Made by a program: the position numbers and the translations under genes
The notes under the pieces: generated by a model
What the model was told of the DNA's origin: nothing
Seen by the model: only the letters and a program-made list of their open reading frames with translations
The model's database searches: none
Virus record (IMG/VR): IMGVR_UViG_2675903357_000009
DNA length: 10,089 nt
DNA from: a virus
Taxonomy: Duplodnaviria > Heunggongvirae > Uroviricota > Caudoviricetes
Direction: 5' to 3' (one strand)
Part shown: positions 5,973-6,012 of the stretch, in pieces
Layout: each line of letters begins with the position of its first letter
Numbering within the stretch: position 1 is the stretch's first letter

Positions 5973-6012
5973 ATCGTTATGACGAATTTACCACAGATTC
6001 CGGAAAAATCAA
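5973..6012 (-). promoter_or_regulatory. Lambda-type late promoter pR' with qut and sigma-dependent pause element
   Basis: On the minus strand: -35 TTGATT (6012-6007), 16-bp spacer, -10 TAAATT (5990-5985), then CGTCAT and AACGATGGG (5978-5970). This matches the recalled lambda pR' layout TAAATT-TGACTC-AACGATGGG, and it starts 6 bp after the Q stop. Confidence 0.7.

Follow-up and report, generated by a model that had tools for sequence, protein, structure and literature searches.

The window (the whole stretch of viral DNA analyzed here, 10,089 nucleotides long) carries on its minus strand late-control segments of a lambdoid prophage, interrupted by IS600. Read in minus-strand order, a hok/sok module at the right-hand end comes first, followed by a DUF968 gene (8275-7217), rusA (7216-6836) and the intact gene for a Q antiterminator of 273 residues (6018-6839). 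Behind this gene lies the promoter region that we call copy 2, and beyond it are the copy 2 downstream genes (4097-5793): a 65-aa HTH-like ORF, a DNA methylase (5445-4387) and three tRNA genes (4346-4097), an arrangement that recurs in many E. coli genomes. The copy 2 late operon is terminated by a 5'-truncated IS600 on the plus strand (2515-3654; boundaries from blastn), which is 99.7-99.8% identical to annotated IS600 elements and which also takes the place of a second Q gene's 5' half. The remnant of that gene, Q' (2062-2514, minus strand), is followed by copy 1 of the promoter region and, beginning 37 nt beyond its tR'-like terminator, by a tRNA block (1707-1959, minus strand; ARAGORN) that consists of a tRNA with a CAT anticodon (tRNA-Ile in the annotation of related genomes), a degenerate middle unit and tRNA-Arg-TCT. 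A few small genes come after the block. An IS600 end occupies the left edge of the window (1 to ~72), and a third IS600 end, inverted, closes it (10017-10089). Both late operons run into IS600 inside the window. None of the complete E. coli genomes reached 80% coverage of the region, and the abundance of IS600 points to Shigella or a closely related E. coli lineage.

Several other features of the region deserve mention. Some 120 bp are missing from the left end of the middle IS600, which abuts codon ~136 of Q' with nothing in between; the junction thus reflects a deletion or rearrangement and not a simple insertion. The same segments are found in alternative orders in the related contigs L016, L047, L064, and L080, which suggests recombination between IS600 copies and between the 517-bp repeats described below. 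Two minus-strand segments, 821-1010 and 3831-4020, strongly match the STnc100 small RNA family in Rfam, at 132 and 124 bits against a gathering score of 47. Each tRNA cluster has one of them downstream, and both close in a terminator-like hairpin. The hok/sok-type toxin-antitoxin module (8853-9178, minus strand), in which an Rfam sok match of 112 bits (9003-9178) overlaps a 70-aa Hok-like ORF (8853-9065), holds the same relative position as hokD in the K-12 prophage Qin. A weak, sub-threshold Rfam match to isrK (8763-8844, minus strand; 25.7 bits, gathering score 50) ends at a terminator-like hairpin (8784-8767); IsrK is an RNA of the Gifsy-1 prophage that comes from an antitermination-regulated promoter. 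On the opposite strand inside the copy 1 late region there is a 111-aa ORF (460-795, plus strand) with a recorded PmrD-family match (PF11183). It is annotated as "anti-adapter protein IraM" in NZ_CP065613, and our Pfam scan of it at E<=0.01 gave no match. Finally, the middle tRNA of the copy 2 cluster (Arg-TCG; 4187-4263, minus strand) is replaced in copy 1 by the degenerate unit, which is of similar length and is not a tRNA (1784-1883, minus strand). This unit is shared by phage mEp460 and by other loci with a copy-1-type downstream region (L016 and L123), and is thus a common allele.

The copy 2 Q protein matches PF03589 (E = 1.6e-53; 179.2 bits against a cutoff of 26.7) and is a full-length homologue of λ Q, with 32% identity. 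Against the solved λ Q chain 7ubm_Q (E = 3.5e-41), residues 1-113 and 182-273 align. In a Pfam scan the protein falls outside the Q21 and Q82 families, which are the other two kinds of lambdoid Q (PMC9388147). Among 10 aligned members of its family, the N-terminal motif SPKSP...TDVMAA.GM and the terminal VTR are invariant. The part between the two aligned blocks, residues ~114-181 (window 6300-6500, minus strand), is an expanded zinc "arm": all aligned non-λ members carry an insertion of 43-66 aa here, giving four CxxC(x)G motifs and a weak DnaJ_CXXCXGXG match, and λ Q has two such motifs. In λ, the tip of the arm touches the Q-binding element and sigma region 4 (PMC9388147), so the geometry of Q loading may be different in the subfamily with the enlarged arm.

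The second gene, which the first-pass annotation had described as a truncated Q', is indeed truncated. From its alignment to copy 2, the ORF list and a PF03589 match of 109.6 bits that covers the C-terminal part only, ~residues 136-273 are left, with an 11-aa frameshift tail. Residues 1 to ~135 are missing, and the reading frame is joined to the 5'-truncated IS600 at ~2515. Because IS600 removes the N-terminal half, the copy 1 Q is dead; in λ Q, the N-terminal segment builds the exit-channel nozzle (PMC9388147).

Right behind the Q stop codon, copy 2 (6012-5970, minus strand) reads TTGATT-16 bp-TGgTAAATT-CGTCAT-AACGATGGG. A TAAATT-CGTCAT-pause arrangement with the architecture of the λ late promoter had been claimed here, and the exact motif is present at 5990-5970. 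The predicted -35 TTGATT (6007-6012) begins 5 nt after the Q stop and is followed by a 16-bp spacer, TTTCCGGAATCTGTGG (5991-6006), that ends in the TG of an extended -10 (5993-5992). By analogy with λ (PMC9388147, PMC6606751), the spacer is presumed to contain the Q-binding element. The -10 hexamer TAAATT (5985-5990) equals that of λ pR'. Given the λ pR' sequence and its 6-nt spacing, transcription is predicted to start at A5978, which places the sigma-dependent pause element AACGAT (5973-5978) at +1 to +6 and a discriminator-like GGG (5970-5972) at +7 to +9. A TATG at +15 to +18 (5961-5964), conserved in relatives, fits the TNYG consensus of the scrunched pause, and the predicted pause position is ~+17. 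A tR'-like intrinsic terminator (5912-5937; terminator scan and RNA fold), with a 7-bp GC stem, a 6-nt loop and T6, lies ~40 nt after the pause cassette, so that a terminated RNA would be ~62-66 nt long. The span 5973-6012 is bounded by the final base of the pause hexamer and the initial base of the -35 TTGATT, both included; 2058-2097 is the equivalent span of copy 1.

Copy 1 (2097-2055, minus strand) is the same apart from AACTATGGG in place of the copy 2 element and the loss of 8 bp right before the -35; written out, it is TTGATT-16-TGgTAAATT-CGTCAT-AACTAT-GGG, and its tR'-like terminator (1997-2022; terminator scan and RNA fold) is identical to that of copy 2. Both copies lie inside a ~517-bp repeat that covers the Q 3' half, the promoter and the terminator, with 3 substitutions and the one 8-bp indel between them. 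Two of the substitutions fall in the Q coding part; the third is in the pause hexamer, a G-to-T change at +4 (AACGAT vs AACTAT; minus-strand base 5975 vs 2060), and it is the sole difference between the copies from -36 to +66. The changed pause element that the first-pass annotation placed at 2058-2097 thus comes down to one mismatch. On the minus strand of the window, TAAATT-N6-AACGATGGG has one exact occurrence, 5990-5970, and one that departs from it at a single base, 2075-2055, against an expected count of 0.03, and two matches were found in 0/200 dinucleotide shuffles. A simple promoter scan did not list the site, which scored 8/12 against a threshold of 9; the extended -10 TG is present.

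The two copies therefore each carry a sigma70-type predicted promoter with the λ -10, copy 2 directly downstream of Q and copy 1 of Q'; a -10-like hexamer at +1 to +6 that keeps the critical A2 and T6 (AACGAT or AACTAT); a G-rich, discriminator-like triplet; a TNYG motif ~14-18 nt from the start; and a hairpin plus T6 (5937-5912 and 2022-1997) as the terminator that Q is predicted to override. In λ pR' the TNYG consensus is T+14 N+15 Y+16 G+17 (PMC9191641), and the TATG of both copies is 1 nt further downstream. Taken together, the sequence supports a λ pR' plus sigma-dependent pause layout at both sites, after a lambda-family Q and ahead of an intrinsic terminator, and from this layout we infer the start site, promoter activity and Q responsiveness of both copies. 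A literature search located no experimental study and no mapped start or pause for this promoter, and the accessible part of the supplements to an RNET-seq pause study contained no entry for the K-12 Qin homologue.

The 8-bp deletion at the Q' stop, noted in the first-pass annotation, is real. It takes one unit out of GGTAACTA-GGTAACAA, an imperfect tandem octamer that adjoins the -35 on its upstream side (2098-2101, minus strand; ~-37 to -44), leaving one GGTAACAA unit fewer than at 6013-6030 in copy 2. The frame of Q' is thereby shifted beyond the normal TAA stop and gains 11 residues (LIFPESVVNSS), with a new stop within CGTCATAAC. Among related contigs, the octamer copy number was normal in 109, one fewer in 5 and one more in 2. 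With natural counterparts both one unit down and one unit up, the deletion is a slippage polymorphism.

The same contraction in a full-length gene yields a Q of 284 aa, with LIFPESVVNSS appended to a C-terminus that otherwise always ends in ...VTR in the family, so the 284-aa alleles may be functionally impaired. We had considered these alleles, which combine the deletion, AACTAT and a full Q, as independent proof of a haplotype that predates the truncation, and dropped them. By blastn, L016 and L089 are this window with its two repeats collapsed into one; since they are possibly derived from this locus, their alleles were not counted, and the IMG/VR loci L021 and L026 and E. coli FDAARGOS_944 were used instead.

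The architecture can be set beside that of known systems. λ pR' is TTGACT-17-TAAATT-TGACTC-AACGATGGGTTAATTCG, and the corresponding sequence in the window is TTGATT-16-TGgTAAATT-CGTCAT-AACGATGGGCGTTTTATG. Common to both are a PF03589 Q, the -10 TAAATT, a 6-nt gap, AACGATGGG at +1 to +9, a TNYG near +16 and a terminator past the pause. Unlike λ, which has TTGACT and 17 bp, the window has TTGATT, 16 bp and an extended -10 TG; its spacer, presumed to bind Q, is unrelated in sequence; and its segment from -6 to -1, which varies among relatives, lacks the TTGACT-like motif of λ. The promoter of the window begins 5 nt past the Q stop codon, and its Q exceeds that of λ by 66 aa and has two additional CxxC pairs in the arm. 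Its terminated RNA would be ~65 nt long, whereas the 6S RNA of λ is 194 nt.

The K-12 prophage Qin (ydfT/quuQ) resembles the window in gene order (hok, rem-like genes, the DUF968 gene ydfU, Q) and, past Q/ydfT, in a series of -35, 17 bp, TAAAAT, 6 nt, AACGATGGGCTTTGTATA and a terminator; its start is predicted at NC_000913.3 position 1,642,420 (minus strand). It differs in that its Q has 250 aa and is ~40% identical, rusA is missing between ydfU and Q, and the promoter hexamers and spacer are different (TTGCAT / TTTTCAAAAAATATGGA). The closest sequenced phages, mEp460 and those of the vB_EcoS-640R1 type, are 95.5% identical over the Q-pR'-tR' region and fully so from -35 to -1, but have the hexamer AATGAT and a T at +11, and the promoter and pause element are unannotated in their records. 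The tRNA block of mEp460 equals that of copy 1, degenerate middle unit included. On this evidence copy 1 resembles another allele of the module and not a degraded duplicate. Phages 82 and 21 follow the same logic: each has a Q gene, a terminator, a promoter that is constitutive and, close to that promoter, a pause that depends on sigma70 (PMC9388147, PMC5001585). Their Q proteins, however, belong to unrelated families (PF06323 and PF06530), and phage 82 pauses at +25, both its pause element and its pause being shifted downstream by 9 bp (PMC5001585).

The promoter type is widespread, with 2,925 matching places in 2,382 of the 5,426 complete E. coli genomes (44%). For its natural variation we collected close relatives in two ways: 120 IMG/VR contigs chosen on the -10 and its flank, with the hexamer left free, and 80 contigs chosen by Q protein alone and so not selected on the promoter. 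Pooled, the two samples gave 44 in-register haplotypes in 199 contig occurrences. The sample chosen by Q protein came from a profile-based search of viral contigs, which returned only close relatives, 92-100% identical, and so added no diversity. Across the 44 haplotypes, the -35 hexamer, A2, A5 and T6 of the pause hexamer, and GGG are invariant. The spacer and the -10 are nearly so: the -10 has two singleton variants, and the spacer varies by G/C at -23 and by two singleton changes, near-invariance that fits a putative binding site. The variable positions are -6 to -2, hexamer positions 3 and 4, and +11. Such a footprint is what recognition of the hexamer by sigma70 as a -10 element should leave. 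Mutation of the second A of -10-like motifs causes a sharp drop in pausing (PMC5389655), and the pause is likewise impaired by mutations of the kind that damage a promoter -10 (PMC5001585).

Among the 120 contigs the hexamer alleles were AACGAT (64), AATGAT (25), AATAAT (10), AACAAT (9), AACTAT (6), AAAGAT (5) and GATGAT (1). The copy 1 allele AACTAT is thus rare; in complete E. coli genomes it accounts for 1 of the 2,925 places, and it was found in none of 6 phage records. It also occurs beside intact Q genes. L021 and L026 carry AACTAT, without the octamer deletion, next to Q genes of 273 aa, in which the 5' half of Q and rusA are ~94% identical to copy 2 of the window and the 3' half is an almost perfect match to copy 1. 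E. coli FDAARGOS_944 has an intact Q with the 81-bp sequence of copy 1, unchanged, behind it, and downstream of this copy-1-type promoter are tRNA-Ile, an IraM-like gene, a holin, a lysozyme and a lysis protein.

A more distant sample was drawn through the Q protein from species-representative genomes. It gave 16 loci. In 12 distinct ones, from Mangrovibacter, Atlantibacter, Scandinavium, Phytobacter, Kosakonia, Buttiauxella, Entomohabitans, Escherichia ruysiae and K-12 Qin-type prophages of E. coli or Shigella, the identity of Q is no more than 39-47%. All 12 have a -35, 17 bp, a -10, 6 nt and AACGATGGG (AATGATAGG in one, where the triplet is AGG), then a terminator at +35 to +70. The motif was absent from one further distant locus, L125. 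In these loci the hexamer and GGG are conserved better than the promoter hexamers, and C3 and G4 are kept more strictly than sigma binding alone demands, so these two bases may have an extra role in distant relatives. The stretch GGGC.TTGTATG after the hexamer and a CGTT at +24 to +27 (5952-5955, minus strand) are likewise kept at 39-47% Q identity (loci L126-L138 and L225); in λ, CGTT lies at +20 to +23. No RNA-structure covariation explains the CGTT and the post-hexamer stretch. A 5' RNA hairpin pairing AACG (+1 to +4) with CGTT (+24 to +27), a stem that the G-to-T change would disrupt, was considered and found unsupported: for 14 diverged sequences RNAalifold predicted only a weak pairing, -3.6 kcal/mol, with 0 compensatory pairs.

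How such a site should work can be modeled on λ. There, transcription starts six bases past the -10, region 2 of sigma70 binds again, now to the -10-like hexamer at +1 to +6, the polymerase scrunches to the TNYG and pauses at +16/+17, and promoter-bound Q loads onto the paused complex, after which terminators are ignored (PMC9388147, PMC5001585, PMC9191641). The λ GGG at +7-9 strengthens sigma70 binding at the pause (PMC5001585). At copy 2, sigma70 RNA polymerase would initiate at about A5978 from the extended -10 promoter TTGATT-16-TGgTAAATT, sigma region 2 would rebind the non-template AACGAT with the aid of GGG, and the polymerase would scrunch to ~+17 at the TATG and pause. Without Q, it would resume, terminate at the hairpin at 5937-5912 and release an RNA of ~65 nt. 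With Q, the spacer-bound protein would load onto the paused complex and render it terminator-resistant, so that the methylase, the tRNAs and anything beyond could be transcribed. Copy 1 shares these cis elements and should act alike if given Q from copy 2; with +4 as the only difference between -36 and +66, a response of copy 1 to Q supplied in trans by copy 2 is a reasonable inference. A Q-modified polymerase from copy 2 would, moreover, pass antisense through the IS600 remnant into copy 1, and the two cassettes could in this way form one long late transcription unit.

We therefore read both sites as lambdoid late-gene control cassettes that use a lambda-family Q, with copy 1 as a second allele (mEp460-like downstream) whose Q was cut by IS600 and not as an eroding duplicate. 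On the sequence comparisons above, we hold this reading to be highly probable.

A less likely reading, though one to be taken seriously, is that both cassettes are silent relics: IS600 broke up the locus, Q is never made and the promoters yield short terminated RNAs at most. IS600 copies do bound the window and cut both late operons, early-region regulators are not visible within the window, and the exact Q' protein was found only on 2.4-kb contigs of NCBI draft assemblies, pieces that end at the same repeat boundaries. Against this, the copy 2 Q ORF is intact and the cis elements are all those of the isolated phage mEp460 (identical from -35 to -1, with the mEp460 hexamer AATGAT). Furthermore, lambdoid pR' is constitutive and needs no activator (PMC7547250), so the short RNA would be expected with or without Q.

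The first-pass annotation had gone further and proposed that the late control of copy 1 is decaying. As a statement about the locus this holds, since IS600 cuts Q' and both late operons; as a statement about the pause element and the deletion it does not. Such erosion would mean that the G-to-T change weakens the copy 1 pause and, with the 8-bp deletion, marks late control that is eroding after the loss of Q. Copy 1 does combine three defects (truncated Q', deletion and substitution), AACTAT is a derived and rare state, and distant relatives almost always retain G at +4. However, neither G nor T matches the consensus at +4, a position that differs in 7/44 haplotypes, in a set where A2, A5, T6 and GGG are fixed. 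AACTAT is found with intact Q genes and once, in FDAARGOS_944, with a lysis cassette too, and the octamer deletion is a recurrent slippage polymorphism. Nor do the control elements show an excess of hits, as two of the 3 substitutions between the 517-bp copies are in the Q' coding part. Because hexamer position 4 is weakly read by sigma and naturally variable, little or no loss of pausing is expected from T at +4 in copy 1. A mild functional defect of AACTAT is possible, and its rarity would also agree with a mildly deleterious allele; erosion as an account of copy 1 we consider doubtful.

Least probable of all is that the ~65-nt pR'-tR' RNA is itself the selected product, a trans-acting small RNA whose needs, and not Q loading, account for the conservation after the hexamer. 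There is a precedent in StxS of Stx phages, a terminated pR' transcript that acts as an Hfq-binding regulator (PMC7547250); +10 to +33 is strongly conserved in close relatives, as is CGTT at +24 to +27 in distant ones, and the predicted fold has a modest stability advantage over shuffles (z = -2.2). But compensatory base changes were seen in 0/8 pairs of the 5' structure, hexamer changes at positions 3 and 4 occur in close relatives without compensation downstream, and Rfam gave at this site only a chance-level Trp_leader match (1996-2102). Such an RNA would in any case be compatible with a pause function of +1 to +9 and does not compete with it.

In the preferred reading there is nothing unusual about either site: each is a late-gene switch of a lambda-like prophage of a very common kind. 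The architecture is textbook λ, in a Q subfamily with an enlarged zinc-finger arm, and it reveals no new mechanism. Its natural variation amounts to an in vivo mutational footprint of a sigma-dependent pause element, which agrees with the biochemical model in that A2, T6 and GGG are constrained and positions 3 and 4 are free. As the promoter type is unannotated in the records that we inspected, placing its start, pause and terminator aids the annotation of lambdoid late operons, tRNA clusters and cargo genes. More speculatively, and against the odds as we judge them, the bases at hexamer positions 3 and 4 (AACGAT, AACTAT, AACAAT, AATGAT, and AATAAT, with 3 to 5 TATAAT matches) may form an allelic series that tunes the lifetime of the pause, and/or the ~65-nt pR'-tR' RNA, which here would come from two promoters, may be StxS-like. 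If true, the allelic series would set the Q threshold and the timing of late-gene or toxin-region expression across the very many prophages with this promoter of E. coli and Shigella.
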